Counted from the stretch's first letter, positions 33,744 to 51,224 are shown. The stretch is 64,000 nucleotides of DNA from Syntrophorhabdaceae bacterium (GCA_963666485.2 CAXXUO010000002.1:192001-256000), one strand, 5' to 3'. The notes: generated by a model not told the origin, from the sequence alone. Numbers and translations are program-made.

Positions 33744-35165
33744 TTACGGCGGCGTGGCTTTGCTGCCGTCGAGCATCTGCAGGTTGTTCATGGCATGCTC
33801 GAGCCCGGGATCTATCTCGAGCGCGCGCAGATATGCCTCGCGGGCGTCGCCCTTACGGCCGGCAAGGTAATACGCGTATCCCAGGTTATTGTAGGCCCGC
33901 GCATTTGCAGGGGATTTCTTCACCGTATCTTCCCACAGGGCTGTTTCGCTTGAATACACGCGGTTCCGGGCAACGGTAAAAGAACCGAGAACGATCGAGA
34001 TACACACCAGGAATATCACAAAAAAGCGAAACCGCGGAAGTCTCCGGTAAAAAAATGACGTTATCGCAATTGCCGCTGCGAGGAACAATCCCCAGCTCGC
34101 GTGATAGAAATGCCGGTCGCTTATACTGTCGATACGCGGTATCAGGACCACCATGGCCATGGCAAGAAAGAACCAGCATATCCCGAAGGCGACATACGCC
34201 CTCTTCCGCACAATTCCCAGGAGGGTGATAACGGCAAGCACAACGACAGCCGCAGTCTGAAGGGAAAAAGCGGACGAGGTGAACAGTTCACCGGGGTCGA
34301 TATTGAGCCGGTTCGGCAGGAACAGGTGGAAGAGAAGCTCCCCGGCGGCCGTCGCCTGGCCGATGAGGTTCTCCCTGAACCCCCTTAACCCGAAACTGTA
34401 CATGAGAATGTAGCGGTACCGGGGATGGGCGAGGACCATGGCAATGATCCCCGCAAAAAGCGCCCAATGGACCCATTGCCGGGACAGCGTTTTCTTGAAG
34501 GGCCTTACATGACCCGTGCCCGCCTCGTACAGGACAAGGGCCAAGGGTAGGGTGATGGCGTATTCCTTGGTTGCGACCCCCATGAGGAACAGAAGCGGCG
34601 ACAGGGCATACAGCCAGATCTTTTTCCCTTCCCGCGAACCCTTCACGTAAGCGGCGATGCTCCCCAGGCAGAACATCGTCATCAAAGAAGCGCTGCGCCC
34701 GCTTATATATGTGACGGCTTCCGTCTGGATGGGGTGCAGGGCGAACAGAAGTGCTGTCAGGAGGGCTGCCGGGTATGCGCCGTTTTCGGGAAGGCCCGTT
34801 TTGCTTTCCTTCACAAAAGAGACTGTGAGGTTGTATACGAGAAGTACATTAATGAGATGGATGGCAAGGTTGAATACGTGAAATCCGAACACCCCCGCGG
34901 GCGATGTCCAGTTCAGGGTATACGTTAGCTTGAGCAAAGGCCGGATGCCGGGAACGAACTGTTTCCAGAAGGCAGGCCATGAATGTACGGCCGGGTTGAA
35001 CACGATGACGTTGTAGTCATCGAGCTGGAACACACCCCGGAATGAGTTGATATAGACGATAAGCGCCGCGCCGAGCGGTATCAACGCGTATAAAGCACGG
35101 CTCGCGTCGGGCCAGTTCTTATTTTCCGAAGAAACCACCAGCCTTCTTGAAAACGTCAACAACAC
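33744..35165 (-). CDS. TMTC-like GT-C membrane glycosyltransferase with C-terminal TPR
   Basis: DDYNVIVFNPAV acidic motif after TM1; RPL, FHVFNLAIH, LFALHPIQTEAVTYISGR, KE and DRHFY; terminal TPR (AYNNLG). Start uncertain. Confidence 0.8.
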   Translation of the reverse strand: MLLTFSRRLVVSSENKNWPDASRALYALIPLGAALIVYINSFRGVFQLDDYNVIVFNPAVHSWPAFWKQFVPGIRPLLKLTYTLNWTSPAGVFGFHVFNLAIHLINVLLVYNLTVSFVKESKTGLPENGAYPAALLTALLFALHPIQTEAVTYISGRSASLMTMFCLGSIAAYVKGSREGKKIWLYALSPLLFLMGVATKEYAITLPLALVLYEAGTGHVRPFKKTLSRQWVHWALFAGIIAMVLAHPRYRYILMYSFGLRGFRENLIGQATAAGELLFHLFLPNRLNIDPGELFTSSAFSLQTAAVVVLAVITLLGIVRKRAYVAFGICWFFLAMAMVVLIPRIDSISDRHFYHASWGLFLAAAIAITSFFYRRLPRFRFFVIFLVCISIVLGSFTVARNRVYSSETALWEDTVKKSPANARAYNNLGYAYYLAGRKGDAREAYLRALEIDPGLEHAMNNLQMLDGSKATPP

Positions 35166-35388
35166 CCGGTGCCGGGTTGGAAGGATTCACCGACGGAACA
35201 GGGACAGGTTGTGAATTGCCTGTCTGCCCTGTGTTCTGGCGCGACGTACCGCTTCTGCCTGACGAGCTGTCCTGCCCCCCGGAGCCCGGCAGCTGCAGGC
35301 CGGGTATGGTCTGGCTCCCGGCTTCGCATACCATGAACAAAAAGCACAGGCCGAGGATAATAAGGGAAATGATCTTGACAGTTTTCAC
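35119..35388 (-). CDS. Small exported Ser/Gly/Pro/Thr-rich protein
   Basis: GTG start with AGGAGG RBS; signal peptide; low-complexity mature region. Confidence 0.7.
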   Translation of the reverse strand: MKTVKIISLIILGLCFLFMVCEAGSQTIPGLQLPGSGGQDSSSGRSGTSRQNTGQTGNSQPVPVPSVNPSNPAPGVVDVFKKAGGFFGK

Positions 35389-35404
35389 GGTGCCTCCTGC
35401 AGCA

Positions 35405-38308
35405 TTAACGGACCACGGCGATCGGGAAATCCTGGATCGTCTGCGGCTTTGCCGTTGTGGGCGTCTGCCTGCCCTGGGTTAACTCTTTTACTCTCTCGGA
35501 CAGGTAAAGGTCAAGCATATTGATGGTGACCCTGCCTTTCCCTGTCATGTCGGCCTTTCCGCCGAGACCGTCGATCAAGGCCCTCGTAAAAGCGCCGTTG
35601 TTCCACTTCTGGTCTTCGAGCGACTGCTGGCGCCCTGTCGACGATGTAAAAACGACAGCACCGTTCTCGGCACTGATCAGCTCGTTGACAATGCCGTCGA
35701 TGTTCGGCGCGATCGCCTTTGCCCCTCTTTTGCCGAGGACGTCGCCCGCATGGCAGGTATCCATGAAAACGATCACCTTGCCGGGAATCGATGCCACCGC
35801 GTCCTTGATATAGGTGAAAAGGACACTCGTCGACTCGAGCCGTGCCTTGTCAAAATCGGACGGTATGAAATAATACTGCCCCGAGCTGTTGTCCCCGTGT
35901 GACGACATAAATATCATGGCGACATCGTGCTGCGTCGCGGAGCGCTTGAGCCATTGCAGGCCATCAACGACATTTTCCCGGGTCGCCTGCGCATCCGTCA
36001 GGACCTTCGTCGAAACGTCGCGGTACAGCTTTCCTTTCTGGGCATTCATCGCGCCGGCGAAATCGATGGCATCTTTCGCGGCAAACTTCAGGTTGTTCTC
36101 GGGATGCTTCGTGTACCTGCTGACGCCGATGGCGAGAACGTACAGTTTCGGCTTGATCGTGAAGCCCTCGGCAGCCGGCTGCTGCGCGTTGGTCCTCATG
36201 ACCCGGACGGATGCGGCCTCGCTCGTCGTGTTCTTTGTCATCGCGATAACGCTTATCGTGTTCTGCGGCCCGTCGATCGCCACGTCGACAGTCCTCGCAA
36301 CCGATCCTTTGCCTGTCGACGGCCGTGTGCCTGCTCCCTCGAGGACGATGTCGCGCGCCTGCGGTATCGGGCGGCCGTCAACGAGGACCTTTATGCCGGT
36401 TACCGGCGCGCCGGACGGAGATTCCACGGAAAATTTTACAGGAACTGTATTCGCACCGACCCGGGCCCCGTCGGCGGGTGACGTTATGCGGACCACCGGC
36501 GGAAGGTTCCCGGCGATGGATGACTGTGCCGCCTGCTGACCGGATGCTGTGAGCGCCCCGCCTTCATCGTAGGTCGTCATGAGATTTGCCAGGACCTCGG
36601 GATGGTAATATGTTTTCCGGAACTGGGCGACGGGATAGAAGTACGCCTCCCGGTCCCAGCCGTTGTTGACATGCCAGCCAAGGATCGAATCAGCGCCGGG
36701 GCTCGCCGCGTAGTAACCGCGGGGCGTCCATGCCACCCAGGGTTTCCTCGGGCCGTCAAACCTGAGGACACGGAACATTGCAGCCAGTTGCGTCCCGTCG
36801 GATACCCGGTACCACCGTATCGTCCCGTCGTCATGGCCCACCACGAGCACCTTGCCGTTCTGCGAAACATTCGCGACCCACGGTACGGAGAAGGCACGTT
36901 TCTTCCATATGACTTTGCCGCTTGCGTCAAACCGGAAGATAGACCAGTTCGACCCGACGATAAAAGATTGCCCTCCCGGGACTATTACGGCGCTTCTCGC
37001 CATCTCATCCTTTCCAAGATCGATCTTCTGATCATTGAGCCTGAAGCCATCCCTGTCCCTGATGCCCGTCAATTTCATCCCGGGCGCAGAGCGGATGGGA
37101 TCGGCAAGTTCGGAATCACGCCCTGACGCGGCGTCAAAATCACCATCCACAAGGGAGAACCTGTACGTGATGGCCTGCTCTCTTCCGAAGACCAGGCCGA
37201 TCGCACTGCCGTCCCCGGAAACCCTGATGGTCGTGCTCCGATAATCAGTCCCCACATCGGACCTGGTGAACAGGCGCTTACCCTCCGGTGTGAATCCGCC
37301 GAGGATGGGGTCCGCCGTGGCATACACCACGTTCCCGCCGGGAATGGTCCGGGTGACAAGTATCGTATTGGCCCCGGACACCACCCACGTGACACTGCCC
37401 CTGCCCGCATCGTCAAAGACGCCTATGACGTATCTTCCGTCCCGGATATACGTGCCCCCGGCGATAAGCCTCTGACCGTCGGGCGACCATGCAACGGCTG
37501 CAAGGCCCTGATTTTTCTTGAGGCTGGAAAGATCGGGTGAATAGAGGAATTTCAGGTCGTCACCCGACAGGACCTCGATGTCCGGCGTGCCGGATATCCC
37601 TGCCGCAATGCGTTTGCCATCCGGAGAGAACCTGACCTGCGCGGCGTTGCCGGTACGCGTCCTGGCCCGCGCGATCTGTTTCAGGCCCCGGTCATACAGG
37701 ATCACATCCCCGTTTCCTGAAGAGGCTGCCCAGCGGCCTGACCGGTCACAATCGATGGTCCTGACAGCCCCGGAAAATTCCGGTGTTCGGGCGATACGCG
37801 CGAATGTGGCGGCATCCACCGTATGTATGCCGCCGGAGTTGAGGCCGACCGCCAGTATTTTCCCGTCGGACGAATACGCAAGATATCGCGGGCGGTCGGG
37901 AAACCCGTTCAATCGCTTCACCATCCTGCCTGACGCACGGTCGTAAAAATACAGGGAATAATCGTTCGGGGCAGAATTCGTAAAGCCGCCGAACGCGACC
38001 ACCTCTCCGTCAGGCGAGATCGCAGCCGCACTGATGACCCCCTGCGAGCCCTCGTCGATGGGGAAGCGCAGCGCTCTTACAAGTTTGCCGTCGGGCAGCG
38101 ACCAGATCCTCACCTGTTTTTCCGAAGCCGTTACCATGAACCTGCCGGCGGCGTCGATGGACATTGTATAGATCGCCGAATTATGCGTGCCCGTATCCAG
38201 TTGGATTATGGGGTTGGATGTCAGGGCGAGCCCCCCTGCCGGAACGATCAAAAGGAAGAGGGAAATCAATGCCGTCACGTGAAAAACCGCAACCGCCGTC
38301 TTGCGCAT
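35405..38308 (-). CDS. Exported WD40-repeat / Ig-like / caspase-family (peptidase C14) protein
   Basis: Signal peptide; many xSPDG/WD-type repeats; PPVVRITSP Ig-like domain; LYVLAIGVS; catalytic SSHG and DTCHAG; GGAGG RBS before the ATG at 38308. Confidence 0.9.
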   Translation of the reverse strand: MRKTAVAVFHVTALISLFLLIVPAGGLALTSNPIIQLDTGTHNSAIYTMSIDAAGRFMVTASEKQVRIWSLPDGKLVRALRFPIDEGSQGVISAAAISPDGEVVAFGGFTNSAPNDYSLYFYDRASGRMVKRLNGFPDRPRYLAYSSDGKILAVGLNSGGIHTVDAATFARIARTPEFSGAVRTIDCDRSGRWAASSGNGDVILYDRGLKQIARARTRTGNAAQVRFSPDGKRIAAGISGTPDIEVLSGDDLKFLYSPDLSSLKKNQGLAAVAWSPDGQRLIAGGTYIRDGRYVIGVFDDAGRGSVTWVVSGANTILVTRTIPGGNVVYATADPILGGFTPEGKRLFTRSDVGTDYRSTTIRVSGDGSAIGLVFGREQAITYRFSLVDGDFDAASGRDSELADPIRSAPGMKLTGIRDRDGFRLNDQKIDLGKDEMARSAVIVPGGQSFIVGSNWSIFRFDASGKVIWKKRAFSVPWVANVSQNGKVLVVGHDDGTIRWYRVSDGTQLAAMFRVLRFDGPRKPWVAWTPRGYYAASPGADSILGWHVNNGWDREAYFYPVAQFRKTYYHPEVLANLMTTYDEGGALTASGQQAAQSSIAGNLPPVVRITSPADGARVGANTVPVKFSVESPSGAPVTGIKVLVDGRPIPQARDIVLEGAGTRPSTGKGSVARTVDVAIDGPQNTISVIAMTKNTTSEAASVRVMRTNAQQPAAEGFTIKPKLYVLAIGVSRYTKHPENNLKFAAKDAIDFAGAMNAQKGKLYRDVSTKVLTDAQATRENVVDGLQWLKRSATQHDVAMIFMSSHGDNSSGQYYFIPSDFDKARLESTSVLFTYIKDAVASIPGKVIVFMDTCHAGDVLGKRGAKAIAPNIDGIVNELISAENGAVVFTSSTGRQQSLEDQKWNNGAFTRALIDGLGGKADMTGKGRVTINMLDLYLSERVKELTQGRQTPTTAKPQTIQDFPIAVVR

Positions 38309-38348
38309 AATGCCTCCCTTGCTATTGCGAGATATGATCCACCACGGG

Positions 38349-41300
38349 TCAGCGGATGCGCTGCACCGCGTATGTCCGCGAATCACCGCCTTCCGTCGCG
38401 CGGACCGTGCATGAGAACTGGTTGCCGCTTCCGTCCATCACAAAACTGAAGGTCCCCGAGTTCTTCGCATCGCTTGCTTCGCGGAAAGTACCCTTCGCCG
38501 TGTTGCCGGCAATGGTGCCTTCGAGCGGCCCTCCGAGTGTTTCCGTCTGACGTGCACCCGATGACGTCTTGTACGGGACATTGACCGAAAAAGTACCCGT
38601 GATGCGCGTACCGCTCGATGTCAGGCTGAAGGTAATGACCTCACCCTCGCGGCCGGCTGAGCTCTTCCATGAACCCGAAAATGACACCGCAGCCGCAGGG
38701 CCGTGCGAGGTCTCCACCGGTTTCGCGGTATATACCCTTCCCGTCTGGGTGCCCGGCTTGCTGGCGGCATACGAGGCTTCCAGCTGTTTCACATAATTTG
38801 CCATCGCGGTGTCGTTCGGCGCATACCTCAGGTATTCCCTGTATGCGGCAATCGCCTCGGGGATCTTGTTCTGTTTTTGCAATTGCTCGCCCTGCTGGCG
38901 CAGCTGCATGGCGTGCTGTGAATTCTTCTGGTCGGCGGCATATTTCGCTTCCAGTGTTTTTATGTAATTTGCCATCGCGGTGTCGTTCGGTGCATATTTC
39001 AGGTATTCCTTATACTTCATCACCGCTTCGGGGATCTTGTTCTGCTTCTGGAAGGCCTCACCTTCGGAACGCAGCACCTTCGCACGGGCCTCAATGGCCC
39101 TGGCGTCCGCCTGTTTCTTCAATTCCGCCTCGAGCTGCCGTATATAATCCTGCAATTTCGGGTCGGGCTGGCACTTCAGGCTTTCACGATACTTATCGAT
39201 GGCATCGGCGTATCTCTTCTGCTGCGCGAGGGCGTCACCCTGCTGGCGCAGGGCCTGGCACGCCTGTTTCGCTGCCGCTTGTTTTTTCAGCGAATCATCG
39301 AGCTGGGCTGCATATGTTACGCGCTGTTTGTTCCCCGGAGCACAGGCGATGTTCTCTTTGAACTTCGCGAGCGCATCGGCATGCTTGCCTGCATTGTAAA
39401 GCGCCTGGCCTTCGGTCCATTTGGCCTCGCACTTACGGGCCGCATCATCTTTCTTCGCCTTTGCCTGCTGCAATTCATTAAGCTTCCCCTTGAGCTTGTT
39501 CCCGTGGATCTCCATGTCCCCGTTGCGAGGACGGATCTTGAGGCCTTCTTCGGCCGAGGCTATGCCTTTTTTGATCGTCGCCTCGTCGAGAGGCTGCGTC
39601 GTCGTGGCAAGCCCGGCGACGTACGCATAAAGCTCCTTGAACCTCTTATCTTTGAGGCCCGCGTCTTCCTTGAGCTTCGAGTATTTTGCGTAGTCAGGGT
39701 CTTTGATGTCCCCGTTGTCCCGCATGGCCTTGAGCCCCTGTTCATAACTCGTTGAGGCCGCCTCGAAATTATAGGAGCGGTAATACTGGTCCCCCGTATT
39801 GAAGAAGGATTGCGCGTACGCCTTCGCGTTGGCATTCTTTTGCTTTTTCTCCATCGCCGCGGCAAGCTCATTTATCTGTGCCCGCCTCGGATCGTCGGCC
39901 TTGAAGCGCGCGGCTTTGTCCTTGAGTTCCTTGACGACCGCCGCGATCGCGTTCGGGTCCGAGGGTACACCCCGCGCGAAATTGGCCTTCGCGGTCTCGT
40001 AATACTGCATCGCGTCGCGCTTCATTGCGAGCATCGTGTTTATCGTCCCGAGCGCGGCTTCGTAGTGCTTTTTATCCGCAGGGTTCAGTTCATATGTCAG
40101 GACCTGCTTGACGTGGACCTCGGCCTTTTCCCAGTCCTCCGCCTTGAACAGGCGCGTCCATTCCGCGTTGCTCTTCTGCGAGAAGTCGTTGTACCATGCG
40201 ATCCCTTTATTGAAATCCGCCGTCACGCGGGCCCACAACGGGTTGGTCGACGCCTGTCCCCCTGCCTGTTCGCGCAGGATGTCCTGTATCTCGAGCATCG
40301 CCTTTTGGGCCGACCATATCTTTTTCTGTGCTATAAATGCATCGAATTCTTTTGTTTTTGCCTCGACGCGCGGCCATGCATCGGCGTATTTCTTCGCCTC
40401 TTCGAGCTTCTTTTTCGCATCGGCATCCGCGGGGTTGAGCTTTACCGCCTGTTCAAGCCGTTTTATCGCTTCTTTATGATCTGCCTTATTGAGGGCGTCC
40501 CATCCCATCTTCTTGCAGTCCTGCGAAAATTGGTTAAGAACGGGTGCGGCCAGTTTCGGGTCCGTCTTTGCCGCGTCTTCGGCGGCAGCAATTGCCTCAT
40601 CGTATTTCTTCTGCGACCAGAGCTGCTTTGCGGAGTCGAGCTTTTTCTTCGCCTCATCCTTTTTCTTGCCCGTCGACACGTCGGACTGGGAGATGGTGAC
40701 GCTGAGCGACCCGGTGCCGCTGCCTAAGTCCGCTCCATCGGCCGACTTGACGGCGCACGTCATCGTGTACGAACCGGTCTTGCTGCATGTTACCCCGGTT
40801 TCCTTTGACGATGGTCCCGAGATGCTGCAGCCTTCGGGGGCTACGGTCCACTGATAACGGAGATTTTCTGTGGCCGGGGTCACGCTCGCCGCGAACTCGA
40901 CCCGCTGCCCTTCCGCTATCTGGCGGTCCGCCGATACCAGCCCGACGCCTTCCTTCCAGATCATCGGGGGCGGCCCGGCGATCTTCGGGCCTGTTACGGT
41001 AACGGATGGTTTCTTCGCAGTAACCGTGATCTTTTCAACACCGATCTCATCGCCGCCGTCCTTTGCCTTCGCGTGAGCGGTCACGGTGACGGGTTTGTCA
41101 TCTTTCGGTTTATAGGTGTATGTCTTCTGGTCCTGTGTCGCGGCACCCCCGCTCTGCGTGTTGCCGGCTGCCTCCCACCAGTATGAGACGGTCTGCTGGT
41201 CGAGTTTGGGCTGTTCCGTCAGCGTAATCTTCACCTCCTGCCCGACAAGCGGTTCAGCAGGCTCGGCCTTCAGGGTTATCCCGGGCTTCACGACCTGGAT

Positions 41301-44300
41301 CTGTATCTGCTCCGATTCGCCGACCGTCATCTTCCGGCCGTCCACATCACGCTGGACAACGACCCAGACAGGTGTTGTCCCCGGCTTCCGGAAAGACGCC
41401 GTATTGCGTGACTGGGAACCGCCTTTCGTTTCGTATGTCGGGTTCTTCGGGTCGCCGAAAACAGCGTCGGGGTTGCGCTCCCATACAAATGAGAACGAAC
41501 CGCCCGCCGGTTTGTCGCCGGAAAAGACCTCAGCGAGGAAAGTCGCCTTCCCGCCTATCGGGATGCTGTTCTCCTTCGGGCTCTCCTTGGTGATCTTGAC
41601 CTTCAGGCCCGTGCACTGGATAGCCAGGCTGGCGGCTGCGCTGTTGTCATCCTGGTCCGTCACCGTGACGCTTGCGGTGCATGTCTTGCATTCACGGGTG
41701 TTCAGTACTTTTGCACGGTCTTCCTTTGCATCCTGGGCGCACCCGCCCCAGGTGAATTTGTATCCGCCGGATCCCTCGCTGGCCTCGGCTACGAGGTCGA
41801 CGATATCGCCAAAATCGGCGGGGTTCTTCGATGCGGTAAGTTTGACCGTAAGAGGCTTCGTGTGTTTCTTGTTCTGGTCGCGCCTCATCTTGTCGGCGAG
41901 CGCCGGGTCGTAGGTCCCCTTTCCATAAGCCCCTTCCCAGCAAGTCTTTGCGCAGTCGTTCGGGGCGCCGAAGCTATGCCGTCTGGTCGCTCCAAAGGCA
42001 CCTGCCCCGCCAAAACACGGGCCGGAGCTTTTTGCCTCGGGTATCGATTTCTCTTCCGGGTCCCACCATACGCCGATGTGCCCCGCCCAGCCGCAGTAGC
42101 ACCGGCACAGGCAGTTATAGTAGCGTGCGTCGAGTTCCTCTTTCGTCGGCGGCGGGGTGCAGCCCTGTTCCAGGGCGGGTTTGCCCCTTTCGACACAGTC
42201 GTCAGGCTTTGTTGCCGTAACGGTCCGCGTCTGTTTCTTCGTTGCCCTGCTGCATTCACCCCATTCGGAATATTCGTAAGAGCACGTGGGCGCCTCTTTT
42301 TTCGTCGTAGCCGCCGTATCGGTCGAGGGCGTGTCCGGCTTCTTCACATCCTGGGTCTTGTCCGGCGGCAGTTCTACAACAACCGTTGCGCAGCCTCTTT
42401 GTAACGCCTTGCCCGACAACCCGTCCTCAAGTGCGACGACCGGCAGGCCTGTGACATACCAGTCGTACTGTTCGGTCACACAGACCTCATAGTTCCCCGG
42501 GGTATCGAGGGTCAGTTCCGCCGCGCCCCTGTATTCTTTCAGCATTTCCCTGCCGTTTAAGGTCCAGACAAACTGCCGGCCGGAGCCCGGTTTCGCATGG
42601 ACCCCGCCGAGGCATTTCGCATGCTCTTCGATGTCCTTCCTGATCGCGGCCGTGTCTTTGCTGTCCGTCGCCGAAAGCCGGACGGTCCCCTTTTCTTTGA
42701 GCCGGGCCGGGCTTGCCGTGACAGTGATGCCCTGTTCTTCAAGGGACTGCCGCAGGGCATCCGTCTCGTTGACCTTGAGCTGGCGGTTGTCGAGCCACGT
42801 CTTCACCACAGGCTGAAGGCATTTATTGATGAGGGCCTGCTCAACCCCTTCGTCATGTTTTGACTCATAATCGTCATAATGTTTTGACGCGGCCTTGGCA
42901 TGGCACTTCAGAAGGGAGATCAGGTACGGCGGTATGAGTTCCTGCCGGAATTTGTGCCCCATCTCCAGGCTTTTCCTTAAGCCCTGGGAATCATATATCC
43001 GGCATGCGAGGCTCCCGTCATCGACAAGCTGTTCACACGTCTTGTCCTCGATATTCTGCTCCCTGCCGGGGACCGTGTAGATGCCGGCGATGAGGTCCAT
43101 GCAGTCCTGCCTGCTGACGACCGCCCCGTACCCGTACTGGCTGATCCAGTCGACAAGCAATTCCCCCGTGGTCATAAATATGACGCTGAACAACTGGGCA
43201 TAACCGAAGGTCGGGTTGGCGAGGCCTGCAATATTTGCCGCAAGGCGTGCACTTGCCTTTGCCGCCCCTTCCTTTTCGATGGCAGCCGGGAACTCCTTGA
43301 GCTCCCAGAGCATTATGAGCGACATGAACCAGTTCTTGTACGCGAACCTTGCGCCGCTCTGCAAGGTAGCGAGAGCACTTCCTGAGGCCTCTTCAAGGTT
43401 TACACGTAAAGTGGCCCACTTTCCCTCACCTTCGAGTATCCCCTTGAGAAAAGCCCGGTACCGCGCGGAAGCCTTCGCCGCCATTGCCTCGAGTGCGGTG
43501 AACTCGACATTGGCCTTTTTCGTCACCTCCGAGCCGAGCTTGTTTGCTATCTGCCTCGATTTGGCCAGCATTGCCTTTGCATCGTCGGCGGATTCAAATG
43601 CGGCCTTTATCGCGTCATCGACCTGGCCCTCGAGGCTGTCGAGGTCTTTCACCACGGCGCCTTCGGGGGTGACCCCGCCGAGCTGGCGTGCACTCTTCAG
43701 CCGGTCTTTCGCCCGTTTCAGGTTCTTCTTCGCCGTGTCGAGCTTCCCTTCTTTCAGCGCCTTCTGGGCTTCATTCAGGCTGTATTCCGCCGACTGCACG
43801 TACCCTTTCAGGTTGGCCTCACCTACCTGTTCGGCCGTGTGCTCCGCTTCCGCCGTCGCCTTGTGCACAAGTTCATATGAATCCGAACCCTCTTTTGCGA
43901 CAAGCTCCGAGACCTGGACCCTCTTACCTGTCTCGTATCCCTGGCGGATGAACTTCGTGGGGGTTGTGTAAAGGCCCTCCGCCGCATCCTCACCCACCTC
44001 GAGGAGGTTCGGGTAATTCCCCATCTTGAGGAATTTGGCGATCGCCTCTTCATTCTGCTCGATCCCTTTCATGAGCTGGGCGGGCGGATAGAAATTGACC
44101 GATTTCAAAAGCAGCTGGATCTGTTCCGTGCTGTATCCCGCCTTCTGGGCCATAGCGAAGATCTTCTTCCTGAGCCGGCCCTGGAAGGCTTTCCAGACCT
44201 CTCGCGCCCGTTCAGGTGACACATCATCCAGCGAGATGAACAACCGGGCGTCATGGTCGGACGGGTCCGCAAGATTGAGAAGGGGGTTCCTGTAGCCTTC

Positions 44301-44483
44301 GCCGGATATCCAGGACCCCTGTTTGATGACCTTGAGGAATGGGTTGCCCATATCCAGGAGGACCCCGTCCATCGCCTGGCTGACAAGATGCGACGGCTCC
44401 ACGGAGACCGCGAAGAGCAAGGCCGGGAATACCAGGGAAAAGATAATGACAGCTGCCGTGGCCAGATGTTTCGGGGTGCGCAT
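38349..44483 (-). CDS. 2044-aa exported multidomain protein (helical N-region, TSP1-like repeat, Cys-rich domain, Ig/PKD-like domains, TPRs, C-terminal beta domain)
   Basis: Single long ORF with signal peptide and GGAGGG RBS; CSYEYSEWGECS..QTRTV..C; several YxW Ig-like modules; TPRs (EAIKRLEQAVKLNPAD). Confidence 0.85.
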   Translation of the reverse strand: MRTPKHLATAAVIIFSLVFPALLFAVSVEPSHLVSQAMDGVLLDMGNPFLKVIKQGSWISGEGYRNPLLNLADPSDHDARLFISLDDVSPERAREVWKAFQGRLRKKIFAMAQKAGYSTEQIQLLLKSVNFYPPAQLMKGIEQNEEAIAKFLKMGNYPNLLEVGEDAAEGLYTTPTKFIRQGYETGKRVQVSELVAKEGSDSYELVHKATAEAEHTAEQVGEANLKGYVQSAEYSLNEAQKALKEGKLDTAKKNLKRAKDRLKSARQLGGVTPEGAVVKDLDSLEGQVDDAIKAAFESADDAKAMLAKSRQIANKLGSEVTKKANVEFTALEAMAAKASARYRAFLKGILEGEGKWATLRVNLEEASGSALATLQSGARFAYKNWFMSLIMLWELKEFPAAIEKEGAAKASARLAANIAGLANPTFGYAQLFSVIFMTTGELLVDWISQYGYGAVVSRQDCMDLIAGIYTVPGREQNIEDKTCEQLVDDGSLACRIYDSQGLRKSLEMGHKFRQELIPPYLISLLKCHAKAASKHYDDYESKHDEGVEQALINKCLQPVVKTWLDNRQLKVNETDALRQSLEEQGITVTASPARLKEKGTVRLSATDSKDTAAIRKDIEEHAKCLGGVHAKPGSGRQFVWTLNGREMLKEYRGAAELTLDTPGNYEVCVTEQYDWYVTGLPVVALEDGLSGKALQRGCATVVVELPPDKTQDVKKPDTPSTDTAATTKKEAPTCSYEYSEWGECSRATKKQTRTVTATKPDDCVERGKPALEQGCTPPPTKEELDARYYNCLCRCYCGWAGHIGVWWDPEEKSIPEAKSSGPCFGGAGAFGATRRHSFGAPNDCAKTCWEGAYGKGTYDPALADKMRRDQNKKHTKPLTVKLTASKNPADFGDIVDLVAEASEGSGGYKFTWGGCAQDAKEDRAKVLNTRECKTCTASVTVTDQDDNSAAASLAIQCTGLKVKITKESPKENSIPIGGKATFLAEVFSGDKPAGGSFSFVWERNPDAVFGDPKNPTYETKGGSQSRNTASFRKPGTTPVWVVVQRDVDGRKMTVGESEQIQIQVVKPGITLKAEPAEPLVGQEVKITLTEQPKLDQQTVSYWWEAAGNTQSGGAATQDQKTYTYKPKDDKPVTVTAHAKAKDGGDEIGVEKITVTAKKPSVTVTGPKIAGPPPMIWKEGVGLVSADRQIAEGQRVEFAASVTPATENLRYQWTVAPEGCSISGPSSKETGVTCSKTGSYTMTCAVKSADGADLGSGTGSLSVTISQSDVSTGKKKDEAKKKLDSAKQLWSQKKYDEAIAAAEDAAKTDPKLAAPVLNQFSQDCKKMGWDALNKADHKEAIKRLEQAVKLNPADADAKKKLEEAKKYADAWPRVEAKTKEFDAFIAQKKIWSAQKAMLEIQDILREQAGGQASTNPLWARVTADFNKGIAWYNDFSQKSNAEWTRLFKAEDWEKAEVHVKQVLTYELNPADKKHYEAALGTINTMLAMKRDAMQYYETAKANFARGVPSDPNAIAAVVKELKDKAARFKADDPRRAQINELAAAMEKKQKNANAKAYAQSFFNTGDQYYRSYNFEAASTSYEQGLKAMRDNGDIKDPDYAKYSKLKEDAGLKDKRFKELYAYVAGLATTTQPLDEATIKKGIASAEEGLKIRPRNGDMEIHGNKLKGKLNELQQAKAKKDDAARKCEAKWTEGQALYNAGKHADALAKFKENIACAPGNKQRVTYAAQLDDSLKKQAAAKQACQALRQQGDALAQQKRYADAIDKYRESLKCQPDPKLQDYIRQLEAELKKQADARAIEARAKVLRSEGEAFQKQNKIPEAVMKYKEYLKYAPNDTAMANYIKTLEAKYAADQKNSQHAMQLRQQGEQLQKQNKIPEAIAAYREYLRYAPNDTAMANYVKQLEASYAASKPGTQTGRVYTAKPVETSHGPAAAVSFSGSWKSSAGREGEVITFSLTSSGTRITGTFSVNVPYKTSSGARQTETLGGPLEGTIAGNTAKGTFREASDAKNSGTFSFVMDGSGNQFSCTVRATEGGDSRTYAVQRIR

Positions 44484-44580
44484 GCAATCCCTCCGGATAT
44501 TTGTTATAAGGGTATCAGGTCAATCCTGATGAAAAGATATGGGCGGCGAAGGCATCGATACATCCTCCGCCCCGATTAGC

Positions 44581-44609
44581 AATATATTAGTCGTACAATG
44601 TATTGTCAA
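44581..44609 (-). promoter_or_regulatory. Sigma70-type promoter for the leftward arm of the caspase locus
   Basis: TTGACA-N17-TATATT on the - strand. Confidence 0.6.
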
Positions 44610-44671
44610 CATATTTTAGCAATCCCGTTTTTCCTTGTTTTTAAAGGTATTTTCGGCACCTTTATCTCTCG

Positions 44672-44701
44672 TTGACAAAATTTTCAGCTCATGGTTATAC
44701 T
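44672..44701 (+). promoter_or_regulatory. Sigma70-type promoter for the rightward arm of the caspase locus
   Basis: TTGACA-N18-TATACT. Confidence 0.6.
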
Positions 44702-44817
44702 ACGTTCAACAGGAATCTTTTTGGGGTGGACATTCCGCGTTTAATCTCGTTAGCGCATGTCCCGTTTTCACCAGGCATCAGAAGTTAAAAAACATTTATT
44801 TTTACATGGAGGTTGGT

Positions 44818-45678
44818 ATGAAAGCATTACCTTCAGTCATTGCAGTTGTCGTCCTTTCACTTTTCATTCTCGGCCTCGCGGGCGAAGCCCCGGCGGGACC
44901 ATCCGGTGCAAAAGCGATCTTTGACAGCGGTGAAGGGCCTGCAGTCCGGATGTCATCAGGCGGCGGGACCGCAAAACCGGCCACGCAGACGGCTTCAGCT
45001 CCTGCCAGAGAAAAATATGTCGGTGTATCCTATAAGCTTGTACTCCTGCGCGACAATGGCTCCTTTGACATTGTCAGCAAGGCGCGTACCTTCCGTACCG
45101 GCGAGAAGATAAAGCTCCTCGTCCGGACCAACAGGCCCGGCTACCTCACGATCATGAATATCGGTACGTCCGGCAACTCAACCGTCCTGTGCAGCGAGCA
45201 GGTAGAGCCCGGCGCAATGGTAGAGATCCCGAGAACGGGTAATTTCCGGTTCTCCGGCCCTGCGGGAACAGAAAAGCTTCTCGTCATGCTTTCGTCCCAG
45301 CCGAATCCCATGGGCGGACCTTCGTCATCGACGGTAGCATCCGCACCGCCCCCTCCTCCGGCTGATGCATCCTCCACGGCTGCACTTCCCCCGCCGCCTC
45401 CTCCGGGTTCGTCGGACGCGGCAAACGTGCCGCCTCCACCGCCTCCGAGCGGCGCGGTCATGACGGCGTCACTTGAGGGCTCCAAGGATATAACGCTCGA
45501 CAGCAACGGCACGAGTTATGGCGTCGTTAACCCGAAAAAAGGCTGGAAGCCCGAAGCACGCGGGAAAAAAGACATTATCATGGAATCGGCGGGTGGTGAG
45601 AATTTCGGCGTCGTGCCTGCATCATATGTGGCGGACGGCAGCATACTCACGCTCGAAATAAAGCTCAAACACAGATAA
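44818..45678 (+). CDS. Exported DUF4384-like protein with polyproline linker
   Basis: Signal peptide; FRTGEKIKLLVRTNRPGYLTIMN...FSGPAGTEKLLVMLS pattern; three poly-Pro tracts; GGAGG RBS before the ATG at 44818. Confidence 0.8.
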   Translation: MKALPSVIAVVVLSLFILGLAGEAPAGPSGAKAIFDSGEGPAVRMSSGGGTAKPATQTASAPAREKYVGVSYKLVLLRDNGSFDIVSKARTFRTGEKIKLLVRTNRPGYLTIMNIGTSGNSTVLCSEQVEPGAMVEIPRTGNFRFSGPAGTEKLLVMLSSQPNPMGGPSSSTVASAPPPPPADASSTAALPPPPPPGSSDAANVPPPPPPSGAVMTASLEGSKDITLDSNGTSYGVVNPKKGWKPEARGKKDIIMESAGGENFGVVPASYVADGSILTLEIKLKHR

Positions 45679-45687
45679 GGAGCGGCT

Positions 45688-46515
45688 ATGAAGAAAGAAA
45701 GTATCAGGTTTCTCATCATTGCTTTCATCGGGGTATTCTTCCTGTACTCGTGCGCTTCCATGCTGCCGAATCCCGATGAGATAAAAACGGAAGAAGACCG
45801 CATTCGGGCGAGAAATCAATGCATAGCTATGTATACAGCCGGTGGAGCCCTCGGCGGTGCCATTATCGGCGGACTGATCGGCGGCGATTGGAAGGGGGCC
45901 GGTATTGGTGCCGCGATCGGGGGCGGTATCGGTTTCGCATATGCCTGGGGTAAATGCCTTTCACTGTACTCCACCCTGAAAAGCACCCAGACGGCAGGTT
46001 ACCAGGAGACTGCGCAGAAGACCGGGTACAATCAGTCGCAGGGCGAAGTCGTCAAGATACAGAGGTTCAACATCACTCCGGTATCCGTCGCGCAAGGCGG
46101 CTCGGTTAAACTGAACGGCTCCTATTATGTCATGGCCCCTCCCGACCGGAAAGAGATCAAGGTGACGGAAACGCGGATCGTGAAGTATTTCGATCCTTCC
46201 AAGAAAGAGTTCGTCGATCTCGGACAGGTAGACCAGGAAGTGACCGCAGCACCGGGAACGCGGACTGCGGACGGCTCTTTCGACATTCCCAAGGATGTCC
46301 CGGAAGGCCGCTATAAAATCGCATTTGTCGTCAATGCAGAAGGCAAGTCGGACATGGTCGAGCGTGAGCTCACTGTCCGGAAAGGGACCGCGTATGTCCC
46401 CGGCTTTAACATGCAGGCCTTCGACCGGCCGGTTACGTACTCCGCCCAGCAGGTCATGATCGTTGAGGAGGTTTCCCTGCTCCACAGAACGGCAGGCGGG
46501 TCTGTCGTGAGGTAA
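45688..46515 (+). CDS. Glycine-zipper lipoprotein with C-terminal Ig-like domain
   Basis: Lipobox LYSC; GGALGGAIIGGLIGG..GAGIGAAIGGGIG; FDIPKDVPEGRYKI. Confidence 0.8.
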   Translation: MKKESIRFLIIAFIGVFFLYSCASMLPNPDEIKTEEDRIRARNQCIAMYTAGGALGGAIIGGLIGGDWKGAGIGAAIGGGIGFAYAWGKCLSLYSTLKSTQTAGYQETAQKTGYNQSQGEVVKIQRFNITPVSVAQGGSVKLNGSYYVMAPPDRKEIKVTETRIVKYFDPSKKEFVDLGQVDQEVTAAPGTRTADGSFDIPKDVPEGRYKIAFVVNAEGKSDMVERELTVRKGTAYVPGFNMQAFDRPVTYSAQQVMIVEEVSLLHRTAGGSVVR

Positions 46516-46520
46516 GAGAT

Positions 46521-47765
46521 ATGAAGCTTCTGAAGATCCTTTTTTGTGCTGCACTTTGCCTGGCCTTCCTTGCTGCCCCGGGCGGCAGGGTGTGTGCCCA
46601 GACATCGCCGGTTACAGACGGACATTTAAATGCCATCAACAACAGTTTCAAGCAGAACAGGGTAACGAACGGTTTCGCTGAACTCGACTCGTATGGCCGG
46701 GTCCAGCTTAAAGGCGGATACGAGGACGACAGGCAGGTTGACCTGGCCTTCTCGCTTGCCCAGCAGATCGTCGGTGTAAAATGGGTCTCCCCCGTCACCC
46801 CGGACAATATCAAGGTCAAGGAATGGGAGAAAAGGATCGGCGGTCTTTTCAGCCGGGCCCGCGTTATCAAGGAGGTTGGACCTGACTCGTCCGTGCCGGG
46901 TTCGGTGCGCAACCGGTACGCCCTGGTCGTCGGTGTCGGCCAGTTCAAGTACGGTATCCAGTCCCTGCAGTACACGGTGCGGGATGCCTCCAGTTTTTAC
47001 AGCTTTCTCGTGAATCCGCAGGGAGCGGGGTTTCCCCGCAACAACGTGTATTACCTGACCGACCAGACGGCAACCCGGGACAATATCGTGAAATACCTCA
47101 ATACCATCAAGTCCCAGGCGGGGCCGGACGACCTCGTGGTCATTTACATGTCGAGCCACGGGACGCCCCCCGATAAGTTTGGCGGTGTTCACATCGTTAC
47201 GTACGACACCGAGGTGAAACCGCGTGAGAAGGTCTGGCACACGGCTATCACGGAACAGATGCTCAAGGACTTTGTTGAGAATTTAAGGTCAAAGCGTCTT
47301 GTGATGATCCTCGATACGTGCTACAGCAACGGCGCCTACCGCTCCATACCCGGTTTTCTGCCGCCGGGCGGCAAATCCCTTGGCGCAGACGAAGATGAGG
47401 GATACGGCATATCCCGTGACTACGGAAAACGGCTTCTCGGGTCCAAGGACATCGTCCTCGATGACGAGCCGAAGAAAAAAAGCTCGGGCAAGAGCATAGA
47501 CAGCCAGGACGGGTACGGCAAGGTCCTCCTGTCTGCCAGTAGCGCCGGAGAAAAATCCTGGGAATCCGACAGTCTCAAGAACAGCGTCTTCACGTACTAT
47601 TTCGTCGACGGTTTAAAGCGGTATAACGGTTCCGTAAAAGATGCATTTACATATTCCAAGCCGCTTGTTTCCCAGAGGGTAAAACAGGAAAAGGGCGCCG
47701 ATATTTCGCAGACCCCGCAGGCGATGGCGACGAGCGACAACTGGAACATGCGCATTACGAAATAA
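46521..47765 (+). CDS. Exported caspase-family (peptidase C14) protease with N-terminal BON-like domain
   Basis: Signal peptide; GRVQLKG...QIVGVKWV (BON-like); RYALVVGV; catalytic SSHG and DTCYS; SVFTYYFVDGL and QTPQ. Confidence 0.9.
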   Translation: MKLLKILFCAALCLAFLAAPGGRVCAQTSPVTDGHLNAINNSFKQNRVTNGFAELDSYGRVQLKGGYEDDRQVDLAFSLAQQIVGVKWVSPVTPDNIKVKEWEKRIGGLFSRARVIKEVGPDSSVPGSVRNRYALVVGVGQFKYGIQSLQYTVRDASSFYSFLVNPQGAGFPRNNVYYLTDQTATRDNIVKYLNTIKSQAGPDDLVVIYMSSHGTPPDKFGGVHIVTYDTEVKPREKVWHTAITEQMLKDFVENLRSKRLVMILDTCYSNGAYRSIPGFLPPGGKSLGADEDEGYGISRDYGKRLLGSKDIVLDDEPKKKSSGKSIDSQDGYGKVLLSASSAGEKSWESDSLKNSVFTYYFVDGLKRYNGSVKDAFTYSKPLVSQRVKQEKGADISQTPQAMATSDNWNMRITK

Positions 47766-47800
47766 ATATGAACTTTTAAATAAAGAGGAGGGAACTATAG

Positions 47801-48451
47801 ATGAGGAAAATGGTATTCGTTGTGACGATAGCATTTCTGGTGTCTATCGGGTTGATGGGAACGGGCTGCGACAAGATGCCGTGGAACAAGCCGAAAGCGG
47901 AGCCTCCGCAGCAGGCAGCACCGCCGCCGCCTCCGCCGCCGCCTGCGCAGGAAGAGAAGAAAGCCGAGCCTGCGGCCGCTCCTGACAAGAAAGCAGCATC
48001 AGGCGAACCGAGTGAAGCCGCCAAGGCGAACCTGAAACAGGCAATGCAGTACATCAATACAGCGAAGAGTACCAAAACCAATCGCAAAGAGAACATAGAG
48101 AATGCAATAGCCGAATATACGAACGCGATCAATAAAGACCCGAATTATGCCGAGGCCTATGCAGGACGGGCCGGTGCATATATGCTGCAGGACAAGAACA
48201 ATAAAGCCCTCGATGACCTCAAGAAGGCAAAAGAGTTGAAACCTGACAGCGCGAGCATCCGTTACAACCTGGCATGCGTCCATTCATTGATGGGAAATAC
48301 CGACTATGGCCTCGATGAACTCGACGCAGCGCTTTCCAAGGGTTTCAATGACTACGACTCCCTGAGGAAGGACCCGGACATCAACAATCTCCGGAAAAAA
48401 GCGGAATTTCAGAAGATACTGGAAAAACACAAGGTGTTTATCACGAAGTAA
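47801..48451 (+). CDS. TPR-repeat lipoprotein with Pro8 linker
   Basis: Lipobox-like GTGC; TPRs; terminal YNLACVHS..DPDINNLR (TPR end-type). Confidence 0.85.
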   Translation: MRKMVFVVTIAFLVSIGLMGTGCDKMPWNKPKAEPPQQAAPPPPPPPPAQEEKKAEPAAAPDKKAASGEPSEAAKANLKQAMQYINTAKSTKTNRKENIENAIAEYTNAINKDPNYAEAYAGRAGAYMLQDKNNKALDDLKKAKELKPDSASIRYNLACVHSLMGNTDYGLDELDAALSKGFNDYDSLRKDPDINNLRKKAEFQKILEKHKVFITK

Positions 48452-48472
48452 AATAGGATAGTAAAACGCTCT

Positions 48473-48515
48473 AAAAACCCTGCAGATACTATGTATTTGC
48501 AGGGTTTTCTTTTTT
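48473..48515 (+). terminator. Intrinsic terminator closing the rightward caspase operon
   Basis: AAAACCCTGCAGATAC-tat-GTATTTGCAGGGTTTT stem followed by a T run. Confidence 0.8.
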
Positions 48516-49382: not shown

Positions 49383-51224
49383 CTACGACTTTCTATCGTC
49401 CACTACAATTTTGAGTTTTGCGTTTTTATTTATCTTATTCCCTTTTAACTTATTCGCCGCTTTAAGATCGTCTATGTCGACACCGTATTTATCGGATATG
49501 GAGCTGAGGGTCTCACCTTTTTTCACCGTGTGATATTTAACTTTTTTGGACCGGGCGGACTCGGTCTTTTTCGTTTCCGCCTTCGGCTCGACGTGACTTA
49601 CGAGCCGGAGCTTCATGTTGGGGTAGACCTTGCCGCCCTTGAGCTTATTTGTCGAGCGCAGGCTGTCCTCGTCTATTCCGTAACGGTCACTGATATCGGA
49701 GAGGGTCTCACCGCGTTTGACGACGTGATATGTCTTGAACACACGGGTCGCTGACCGGCCTTTGGCAGGGGGAGTCTCAGACGGTTTTTCAACTATTTTT
49801 GGTGATGCGGATGATCTCACGGTTGCTACGAGGACCGGTTTGTCGCCGGCATTTTTCTTGACCGTTCTCAGTTCGCTCACGGTAGGTGTATCGTCGCTGT
49901 CAACAGGGGCGATCTTTTCATCTGTATCGGCCCGGGCAACGGACTCACGGACCCTCTCTCCCGAGAACCTGGGTATGGCAAGGACCATGCCGGGCTTTAT
50001 CTTGAGGTCGTTATCGCTTGAATTCAGAAGAAGGAGGTCTCTCTGGTCGATCTTGTGCTTCTTCAGGATACTCGCGACACTGTCCCTTTTTTTGACCTTG
50101 TATGTCGTAATGCTTTTCAGGACCGGAATACTCTCAAGTTCGGGCCCAAGACGTTCGTAAAAGGCCTGGGCGGTTACGTCGGAAGGAAGTTTGACAACGT
50201 AATCTTTCCCCGGCGGGGTTATGCCTCTCAAGATCTCCGGGTTGAAGGTCCGAATGAGGTCGATATCCACGAGCGACGCCTTTGCGATCGTTGTGATCGG
50301 GGTGGCGGGAGGCACCTTTGCCTCTGTGAACCTGATCGGCGGGTCGTAGGTTATATTGCCGAAACCGAATTTTGCCGGGTCCTTTGCGATAATGGCGGCT
50401 GCGATCAACTGCGGGACATATTCGCGGGTCTCCCGGGGAAGCGTGTTGTACCTGTGAAGTTCCCAGAAATCCATCGTGTTGTGTTTTTGCGTCAACCTGC
50501 CTATCCTGCCCTCGCCGGCATTATAGCTCGCAGCGGCCAGGTACCAGCACCCGAATTGGTCGAACAGGGCTTTGAGGTATTTTGCAGCGGCTACCGTGGA
50601 CTTTTCGGGGTCCCGGCGCTCATCGACCCAGTAGTTGACCTCCAGGCCGAATCGCCCTCCCGTCGAATAGATGAATTGCCAGGGGCCGGACGCCCGGGCG
50701 GTGGAATATGCCTTCGGGTTGAACCCGCTCTCTATCATGGCCAGGTACACAAGGTCCTCGGGCATGTCGTTTTCGCGAAGTATTTCCCGTATAATTGGCA
50801 CGTAGAGTTTTGATCTCCTCAGCCAGTTGGCGAAGACCTTCTTCTTGTCCTCGGAGAACCATCTTATGTAATATTTGACAGCATCGTTGAAAACGATGGG
50901 GATATCGAAATTCTGGCTGTAATTGGTGCTCAGCAATTTTGTGATATCATCCTCGTCGTTGACCTTCATTTCCAGGCAATACCGGCCCGGCTTGGTCTTT
51001 TCCTGTTCCTCGCCGGTCTTCAATTCGCCCGGTTTGGTCTTTGAGGGCTTCACAGCGGTCTTTTTTGGTTTCGTAACGGCAGGCGCATCAGCCGGGCGGG
51101 AGGGCGGGGTATACGCATCGGCCACCGGTAGAGGTGTATCGGCGTTCTGGCTGGAGATATTATTGCCGGTTGCACATCCGGCGACAATAAGAACGAGTGT
51201 AGCCAAGAACCAGTATCGCTTCAT
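49383..51224 (-). CDS. mltD: Membrane-bound lytic murein transglycosylase D-like lipoprotein (SLT + LysM repeats)
   Basis: Lipobox VAGC; LAMIESGFNP, ASGPWQF, AASYNAGEG and ETREYVP; three LysM domains. Confidence 0.9.
   Translation of the reverse strand: MKRYWFLATLVLIVAGCATGNNISSQNADTPLPVADAYTPPSRPADAPAVTKPKKTAVKPSKTKPGELKTGEEQEKTKPGRYCLEMKVNDEDDITKLLSTNYSQNFDIPIVFNDAVKYYIRWFSEDKKKVFANWLRRSKLYVPIIREILRENDMPEDLVYLAMIESGFNPKAYSTARASGPWQFIYSTGGRFGLEVNYWVDERRDPEKSTVAAAKYLKALFDQFGCWYLAAASYNAGEGRIGRLTQKHNTMDFWELHRYNTLPRETREYVPQLIAAAIIAKDPAKFGFGNITYDPPIRFTEAKVPPATPITTIAKASLVDIDLIRTFNPEILRGITPPGKDYVVKLPSDVTAQAFYERLGPELESIPVLKSITTYKVKKRDSVASILKKHKIDQRDLLLLNSSDNDLKIKPGMVLAIPRFSGERVRESVARADTDEKIAPVDSDDTPTVSELRTVKKNAGDKPVLVATVRSSASPKIVEKPSETPPAKGRSATRVFKTYHVVKRGETLSDISDRYGIDEDSLRSTNKLKGGKVYPNMKLRLVSHVEPKAETKKTESARSKKVKYHTVKKGETLSSISDKYGVDIDDLKAANKLKGNKINKNAKLKIVVDDRKS

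Follow-up and report, generated by a model that had tools for sequence, protein, structure and literature searches.

Which part of a divergent gene cluster with two exported caspase-family proteases forms a conserved unit, and what might such a protease act on? This question is raised by a locus of about 15 kb at positions 33744-48515 of a 64,000-nt stretch of DNA (hereafter: the window) from a Syntrophorhabdaceae bacterium (GCA_963666485.2 CAXXUO010000002.1:192001-256000). An interpretation made from the DNA sequence without database searches (hereafter: the sequence-only reading) had placed eight open reading frames (ORFs) on two divergent arms and had described the locus as organised around its two caspases. 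All eight ORFs are present as listed. The conserved core of the locus is the rightward arm, which encodes a DUF4384 protein, a glycine-zipper (Gly-zipper) lipoprotein, a BON-domain orthocaspase (BON-caspase) and a TPR lipoprotein. The protease and the DUF4384 protein share a short, co-varying Lys-Asp motif, which is the most useful new lead from this analysis.

Besides caspase-like proteins, clan CD includes the secreted gingipains and clostripain. Among prokaryotic metacaspases, transmembrane (TM) or signal segments were reported for about 15%, and the same survey gives cell-surface functions in 16 operons (PMC3501461). The premise of the sequence-only reading that bacterial caspase-like systems are mostly cytoplasmic was therefore too strong. 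All characterised non-caspase enzymes of family C14 prefer Arg or Lys at P1 (PMC5756287). MaOC1, the only biochemically characterised bacterial orthocaspase according to this 2017 review, is active only after self-processing, and the sections of the review examined here give no natural substrate for a characterised orthocaspase (PMC5756287). DUF4384 has been noted as often fused to protease domains (bioRxiv 10.1101/2022.08.17.504292) and is counted among the accessory domains of orthocaspases (PMC7475262).

A self-contained four-gene operon is the conserved core

The conserved core of the locus is its right arm (44818-48451), a self-contained four-gene operon that extends from promoter to terminator (44672-48508) and consists of the following features.

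44672-44701 (+): sigma-70-type promoter of the four-gene operon (TTGACA, 18 nt, TATACT; 11 of 12 positions)
44635-45678 (+): ORF of the DUF4384 partner protein, real start ATG 44818 (Pfam, conserved GGAGG)
45688-46515 (+): Gly-zipper lipoprotein with a C-terminal beta-rich domain (Pfam matches below cut-off, lipobox, synteny)
46521-47765 (+): BON-domain orthocaspase of family C14 (Pfam, invariant dyad, structure model, Foldseek, OsmY match)
47801-48451 (+): TPR lipoprotein with a Pro-rich tether (TPR_11, TPR_END_plus, lipobox)
48474-48508 (+): intrinsic terminator closing the operon (16-pair stem followed by a T run)

Co-occurrence of the right-arm genes in other genomes, as expected from the sequence-only reading, was borne out by the gene-neighbourhood analysis. 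In regions around BON-caspase orthologues from relatives, the order DUF4384 gene, Gly-zipper gene, caspase gene and TPR lipoprotein gene was found in all 13 loci, and in a scan with one genome per species it recurred in 40 of 49 loci. Among the remaining loci (numbered with L, as genomes are with G), six are cut by contig ends (L029, L030, L042, L051, L060 and partly L057), two are rearranged (L047 and L057), the distantly related L061 yielded just two of the four genes, and L062 is not an orthologue. Carriers in the species-wide scan are relatives of Syntrophorhabdus, Syntrophaceae, Geobacter and Desulfatibacillum as well as Nitrospirota, Dissulfurispiraceae, Burkholderiaceae, other Beta- and Gammaproteobacteria, Methylomirabilis and Rokubacteria; across these phyla the BON-caspases are 48-70% identical. 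Desulfobacterota and Pseudomonadota are thus represented beside Nitrospirota and Methylomirabilis among the loci with the conserved order. When the ORFs of 48 loci were clustered, only the four cassette genes and a giant protein of the left arm (16 loci) recurred widely. The genome analysed here (G000) has two C14 genes and one DUF4384 gene in all, both kinds within the locus.

The tree of 39 caspase sequences (MAFFT and FastTree, rooted on L061) is discordant with taxonomy in that it places one Nitrospiraceae sequence beside Geobacter and several from Betaproteobacteria within a Nitrospirota/Dissulfurispiraceae group. This discordance, in a tree read without support values, suggests that the whole cassette was moved between phyla by horizontal transfer.

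The BON-caspase has the fold and the catalytic dyad of an orthocaspase

Both caspases of the locus exceed the Peptidase_C14 (PF00656) cut-off of 21.4 bits, the BON-caspase with 71.5 bits and the WD40-caspase of the left arm with 53.8 bits. His213, Gly214 and Cys267 of the BON-caspase are invariant in 36 sequences (alignment A2), as are D155, S211 and D265, and the SSHG and DTCHAG segments of the WD40-caspase align with the dyad. It had been claimed that both proteases keep the His-Gly/Cys dyad; this was correct, and from these residues both look catalytically competent.

The BON-caspase consists of a signal peptide, a BON-like domain (residues 33-99), the p20 part, a linker of 60 residues (269-328) and a C-terminal p10-like part. 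In its AlphaFold2 (AF2) model the mean predicted local distance difference test score (pLDDT) is 72.7, with values above 90 in the caspase core and below 50 in the linker, which we read as disordered. Searches with this model using Foldseek returned MALT1 (E 5.3e-12), metacaspases and the Geobacter protein GSU0716 (3bij; E 2.8e-10), and by model and search the protein has the caspase-haemoglobinase fold. Sequence alignments to metacaspases of the Protein Data Bank (PDB) span only p20 and the linker; the C-terminal region 333-414 is folded in the AF2 model. In comparison with yeast Mca1 and Arabidopsis MC4, H213 and C267 lie on the catalytic His and Cys, and D155, S211 and D265 on Asp, Ser and Asp. 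For TbMCA2, the residues Cys92, Asp95, Ser156 and Asp211 were proposed to form the S1 pocket (PMC4357240). By our own mapping of positions, D155, S211 and D265 correspond to Asp95, Ser156 and Asp211, three of these four pocket residues.

A profile of the N-terminal domain (alignment A4) matches both BON domains of OsmY (8rjx) with an E-value of 2.9e-5. In the AF2 model this domain has an alpha-beta-beta-alpha-beta topology, the one expected of a BON domain.

The DUF4384 partner and the two lipoproteins

The product of the first gene matches DUF4384 (PF14326) with 45.4 bits at a cut-off of 27. It is composed of a signal peptide, a GAKAIFDSGEG motif, the DUF4384 Ig-like domain, a variable Pro-rich linker and a beta module that ends in LKHR (alignment A3, 27 sequences). 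The AF2 model of the 291-residue sequence has a pLDDT of 72.7, reaching about 90 for the domain at residues 71-164. No PDB sequence match was obtained for this protein, and its best Foldseek hit had an E-value of 0.014. With VIA-align the best Z was 7.8 against generic Ig-like sandwiches including macroglobulin domains, which is in the range expected for a common arrangement; as modelled, the fold is a generic Ig-like sandwich. A profile search at E ≤ 0.001 collected 4645 representatives of this partner family; at E ≤ 1e-10 the number is about 1800. The GGAGG sequence and ATG 44818 are kept in 11 loci of the genus, while the mechanically delimited ORF begins upstream at 44635.

The Gly-zipper lipoprotein has a visible G-x-x-x-G run and a lipobox whose Cys22 is conserved in most orthologues. 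The TPR lipoprotein is matched by Pfam TPR_11 (43.6 bits) and NCBIfam TPR_END_plus (73.4 bits), and its lipobox is conserved in many orthologues. Export had been claimed for every product of the locus. Indeed each of the eight has an N-terminal hydrophobic segment, with several TM segments in the GT-C-like protein of the left arm, and the lipobox Cys is mostly conserved. From hydrophobic segments and lipobox conservation we infer that all products are extracytoplasmic.

A Lys-Asp motif is shared by the protease linker and its partner

One copy of the motif G-x-K-D-[ILMV]-x-x-[DE] lies in the p20-p10 linker of the BON-caspase, and two copies lie in the tail of the DUF4384 protein.

47439-47462 (+): GSKDIVLD in the caspase linker, Lys309-Asp310 invariant (linker pLDDT below 50)
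45478-45501 (+): copy 1 in the DUF4384 protein, GSKDITLD, in a Pro-rich segment of low pLDDT (residues 215-233 of the 291-residue model)
45562-45585 (+): copy 2 in the DUF4384 protein, GKKDIIME; a confident beta-strand begins here (residues 259-263, AF2)

Across the loci, 40 caspase ORFs contain 37 matches and 36 DUF4384 ORFs contain 62. No match was found in 37 Gly-zipper, 42 TPR-lipoprotein and 19 giant-protein ORFs, and the other 534 ORFs of the loci contain four matches in 169,438 residues. A stricter form of the motif occurs four times in the 2.84 million six-frame residues of the genome, three of them in the cassette; the fourth, GGKDLILE at G000:C2:137554 outside the window, is located in an open frame of 275 amino acids. 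When the caspase and DUF4384 families were compared by hhalign, only these 13 motif columns aligned (E 6.8e-4). The motif is found in 88 of the 150 best DUF4384-family representatives and in 51 of the best 60. In the DUF4384 proteins of the most divergent relatives copy 2 is the sole copy kept.

Moreover, motif variants match between the two proteins of the same genome. Both have KDIFVE in L036 and both have SKDLFVE in L061, the most distant pair, and KDL is present in caspase and partner alike in L037, L043, L047, L050, L054 and L057. On the caspase tree the KDL state is found in four or more separate branches. Over the six variable positions and 29 distinct motif combinations, the similarity within a locus was 3.55 of 6 compared to 2.80 across loci, a value that none of 10,000 permutations reached in a test that ignores relatedness.

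The position of the motif copies in the models is compatible with a loop-strand junction that would be cut. It fits equally a docking strand that is mimicked by the caspase linker.

The leftward arm and the control signals

The leftward arm is made up of four further genes and a promoter of its own.

44581-44609 (-): sigma-70-type promoter of the leftward arm (TTGACA, 17 nt, TATATT; 11 of 12 positions)
38349-44483 (-): giant exported protein of 2044 amino acids (Pfam PKD and TPR)
35405-38386 (-): ORF of an exported WD40/Ig (Big_7)/Peptidase_C14 protein, likely start ATG 38308 (Pfam)
35119-35388 (-): small exported S/G/P-rich protein of 89 amino acids (translation)
33744-35165 (-): GT-C-like (PMT_2/TMTC-like) multi-TM protein with C-terminal TPR (TPR hidden Markov models (HMMs), hydrophobic segments, language-model features)

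The back-to-back promoters and the terminator of the right arm were found where the sequence-only reading had placed them. Promoter-like sites number 12 in the whole 16.5-kb region compared to 7.1 ± 3.1 in shuffled sequences, and in an alignment of 11 loci from the genus the hexamers of both promoters are the best conserved islands of the intergenic region. The same alignment supports GGAGGG and ATG 44483 as the start of the giant gene. In L019, L021 and L022 an extra insert of about 60 nt lies between the divergent promoters (aligned to window positions 44636-44672), with both hexamer sets conserved.

The giant protein begins with a hydrophobic segment, a novel and largely unmatched domain of about 690 amino acids and a TSR-like Cys-rich module, followed by PKD/Ig repeats, a TPR array and a C-terminal beta domain. 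For the N-terminal 690 amino acids there was no usable Atlas match, no PDB sequence match at E ≤ 1 and only chance-level Pfam matches, and among 5.8 billion clusters this part has only 25 relatives, all of them unnamed or hypothetical proteins. At window positions 42100-42330 (residues ~720-790) we observed a Cys-rich module that resembles a thrombospondin/midkine-type repeat and has a weak PTN_MK_C match (E 0.004-0.006). PF01091 is precomputed on three distant homologues (P0142-P0144); such a thrombospondin/midkine-type module is unusual in a bacterial protein.

The giant gene is linked to the cassette in three arrangements. In 10 loci of the genus it lies upstream and points away from the cassette. 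L048, L052, L053 and L055 (Nitrospirota, Dissulfurispiraceae) as well as L033 (Burkholderiaceae) have it immediately after the cassette on the same strand. In L049 and L059 it precedes the cassette on the same strand, as a large PKD/TPR protein that has partial similarity only. Among 41 relatives, including the genome itself, the giant N-terminal domain occurs in 16 of 17 genomes with a caspase orthologue (E below 1e-100) and in none of the 24 without one, a descriptive count over kin that are not independent. In G023 and G039 the giant gene and the caspase gene are on different contigs. Five cassette genomes lacking a linked giant gene were checked with the N-terminal query: four gave no homologue and the fifth gave a partial one. 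The role of the giant protein is therefore not essential to the cassette. Its inclusion in the system by the sequence-only reading holds as far as linkage and genome-level co-occurrence go, but not as a fixed component; judged by gene content, the giant protein is a frequent but optional (facultative) partner of the cassette.

The WD40-caspase combines WD40, a Big_7 Ig domain and Peptidase_C14 (Pfam). Orthologues with 66-84% identity are located between the giant gene and the pair of small-protein and GT-C genes only in G000, G007, G011 and G016, whereas in G003, G006, G009, G018 and G019 the giant gene is followed by the GT-C gene, with no WD40-caspase between them. Other genomes have only paralogues of about 40% identity, at loci devoid of cassette genes. 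By this distribution, the WD40-caspase is a strain-variable, lineage-specific accessory gene, and the description of the locus as organised around two caspases did not hold. A cascade of both caspases as a conserved unit was rejected, as no locus outside the genus has the WD40-caspase. At G000:C9:76021-76434, outside the window, a caspase fragment matches the last 140 residues of the WD40-caspase with 54% identity; it lies in a frame of 146 amino acids with one in-frame TGA and probably represents a gene remnant.

Only in the genus are the GT-C-like gene and the small S/G/P-rich gene found next to the cassette. The GT-C-like protein has at least five hydrophobic segments, and language-model features point to PMT_2 clusters (0.98) and TMTC_DUF1736 (0.93), while no HMM or PDB sequence match was found outside its TPRs. 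Its earlier naming as a TMTC-like glycosyltransferase is therefore backed by the language-model features and by no HMM or PDB match. The pair was rejected as a part of the cassette, being unlinked to it outside the genus; by its linkage it is an unrelated genus-specific neighbour. Weak homologues of the small protein are encoded directly upstream of the GT-C gene in L017, L020, L021 and L064. In several genomes of the genus the pair stays beside the giant gene, whether the WD40-caspase is present or not, and it may serve in protein O-glycosylation.

A probable envelope protease module and its alternatives

On balance, we consider it probable that the four-gene operon is an envelope protease module, in which a Lys/Arg-specific protease close to the outer membrane is paired with a DUF4384 protein as its dedicated substrate or regulator. 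The N-terminal BON domain would probably hold the orthocaspase at a membrane surface. The protease would be made as a zymogen with its disordered 60-residue p20-p10 linker and, like other non-caspase C14 enzymes, would cut after Lys or Arg; the likely site of self-processing is the invariant Lys309-Asp310 within G-S-K-D-I-V-L-D. Since the tail of the DUF4384 protein contains the same motif, this presumably periplasmic protein would be a dedicated substrate or a pseudosubstrate regulator, with the Gly-zipper and TPR lipoproteins as anchors or adaptors. A bolder version is possible, though we hold it only tentatively: a self-contained switch of periplasmic caspase and cognate substrate, mobile by horizontal transfer, in which the linker motif was copied into the co-evolving DUF4384 partner. 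A single active site would then serve twice, first to mature the protease and later to cut the partner at the inner face of the outer membrane. If this were true, such a switch could control a giant PKD/TPR envelope protein in many lineages. It could also be a general device for envelope signalling or remodelling, which would explain DUF4384 beside exported caspase-like proteases across bacteria.

Several observations weigh against the envelope protease module. The hhalign match of the two families has a probability of just 27%, and the permutation test takes no account of common descent. In L051 the caspase has KDL and the partner has KDI and KDM. Motif copy 2 starts a confident beta-strand, and a structural or docking role would suit it no less than that of a scissile site. 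An equivalent of TbMCA2 Cys92 is not conserved in the BON-caspase. The BON domain model of Pfam (PF04972) gave no match on residues 1-126 even at E ≤ 5, so that the BON label of the sequence-only reading is kept on the OsmY profile match and the model topology and not on Pfam. The Gly-zipper lipoprotein remains below the Pfam cut-offs (Gly-zipper_YMGG, PF13441, 20.6 of 28.9 bits; Rick_17kDa_Anti, PF05433, 19.8 of 24.2 bits), and the scarcity of the giant protein in cassette genomes without a linked copy belongs here as well.

The same motif could serve as a docking element that is never cut, with the KD-hydrophobic-acidic strands of the caspase linker and of the partner tail binding one groove. 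This groove could be that of the TPR lipoprotein or, by strand exchange, lie in the Ig-like module of the partner. In that case the DUF4384 protein, itself uncut, would hold or release the zymogen. The strand conformation of copy 2 in the partner model (pLDDT ~71-85) and its retention in the most divergent relatives speak for this, short acidic peptides are commonly bound by TPR domains, and co-variation of the motif suits a common binding site no less than a common active site. Yet the invariant Lys is exactly where a Lys/Arg-specific C14 enzyme needs its P1 residue, and the caspase motif lies within the linker in which C14 zymogens are processed (PMC5756287), and we regard uncut docking as somewhat unlikely. 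Alternatively, the cassette could process and release a giant surface or matrix protein, much as the periplasmic protease LapG acts on the adhesin LapA, with the giant protein as the real substrate and the DUF4384 protein as a regulator. Its three linked arrangements and its presence in 16 of 17 against 0 of 24 genomes would agree with this, as would its PKD/Ig repeats and TSR-like module, features that typify surface proteins. This explanation is nevertheless unlikely: the co-occurrence count comes from non-independent kin, no N-terminal homologue was detected in four of the five cassette genomes that lack a linked copy, the 19 giant-protein ORFs are free of motif matches, and Pfam and NCBIfam revealed no gene for a secretion system or an outer-membrane anchor in the locus.

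The whole 15-kb divergent locus might also act as one extracytoplasmic cascade, as the sequence-only reading proposed; the WD40- and BON-caspases, scaffolded by WD40 and TPR domains, would then act one after the other on the giant protein. Both caspases are exported, keep the dyad and lie on either side of a shared promoter region. G007, G011 and G016 have the same arrangement, and multi-metacaspase operons are known in Deltaproteobacteria (PMC3501461). But five genomes of the genus lack the WD40-caspase at an intact junction while all the rest is kept, no locus outside the genus has it, its ~40% paralogues lie at unrelated loci, and it has neither a long linker nor the shared motif, which makes such a cascade very unlikely. 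Caspase-like proteases act in several defence systems. The patchy presence of the cassette across phyla and the discordant caspase tree could be taken as signs of an anti-phage or conflict system at the envelope that was spread by horizontal transfer, and the generic PADLOC 'caspase' model matches both proteases (E 1.6e-14 and 3.6e-11). PADLOC, however, had no match for the other six proteins and no system-specific match for any of the eight, and with 75.5 and 74.6 bits the two caspases are far below the cut-off of 140 of the EACC1-associated caspase model (NCBIfam NF047832). Within the genus, moreover, the position is stable with housekeeping flanks, and nucleotide-sensing, NTPase or effector-toxin domains were not found by Pfam and NCBIfam, so that a defence role appears most improbable.

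Relation to known systems

With the orthocaspases (MaOC1, from Microcystis aeruginosa, and GSU0716, 3bij) the cassette enzyme has in common the C14 domain and the His-Cys dyad, along with acidic residues of a putative pocket, from which Arg/Lys specificity would be predicted, and a zymogen-type linker for which self-processing is expected. It differs from them by its export, its N-terminal BON-like domain and its place in a fixed four-gene envelope operon. In the literature examined we found no orthocaspase with a defined cognate partner or motif. MALT1 and the plant and fungal metacaspases have the caspase-haemoglobinase fold in common with it (Foldseek E 5.3e-12 to 1e-9, target-normalised template-modelling score up to 0.71) but are eukaryotic and cytoplasmic, have other accessory domains and are only 12-17% identical in sequence. 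Its N-terminal domain resembles OsmY and DolP in topology, and OsmY in profile, whereas in the cassette this domain is fused to a protease and escapes the Pfam BON model. Presumably, as we assume from DolP, the BON-caspase binds lipids.

The type III-E Craspase (Csx29/Csx30) likewise places a caspase-like protease beside a dedicated substrate and has TPR modules with the protease. The C-terminal domain of some Csx30 proteins is DUF4384, and the Csx30 family is the substrate of the caspase-like Csx29 (bioRxiv 10.1101/2022.08.17.504292). Craspase, however, is cytoplasmic, RNA-guided and bound to Cas7-11, and its protease is of the CHAT and not the C14 family, while the parts of the cassette are all predicted to be exported. 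Pfam and NCBIfam showed no Cas, sigma-factor, anti-sigma-factor, Csx29, Csx30, Csx31 or RpoE domains in the eight products, the search for Cas7-11 being confined to the locus. The likeness, drawn by analogy, would be one of mechanism only.

The cassette is not described in the literature searched, including the examined sections of the metacaspase survey (PMC3501461); the supplements of that survey (Dataset S1, Table S2, metacaspase operons) were outside the search and might include relatives. It offers a protease whose candidate cognate substrate is encoded two genes away, and a precise predicted cleavage or docking motif that is conserved over several phyla and present in a large share of the DUF4384 family. 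The roles of exported bacterial caspases and of DUF4384 thereby become a simple question of cleavage and binding. One conserved operon with optional neighbours is also a better target of study than a two-caspase system of 15 kb.

Sequence downstream of the operon

The segment 48001-50000, which contains the end of the operon and the gap before the next gene, has the lowest G+C content of the window (0.479 compared to 0.51-0.60 elsewhere). This next gene (49383-51224, -) codes for an SLT lytic transglycosylase that has LysM repeats and whose N-terminus is lipoprotein-like. In most genomes of the genus, but not outside it, the gene is next to the cassette on the downstream side.

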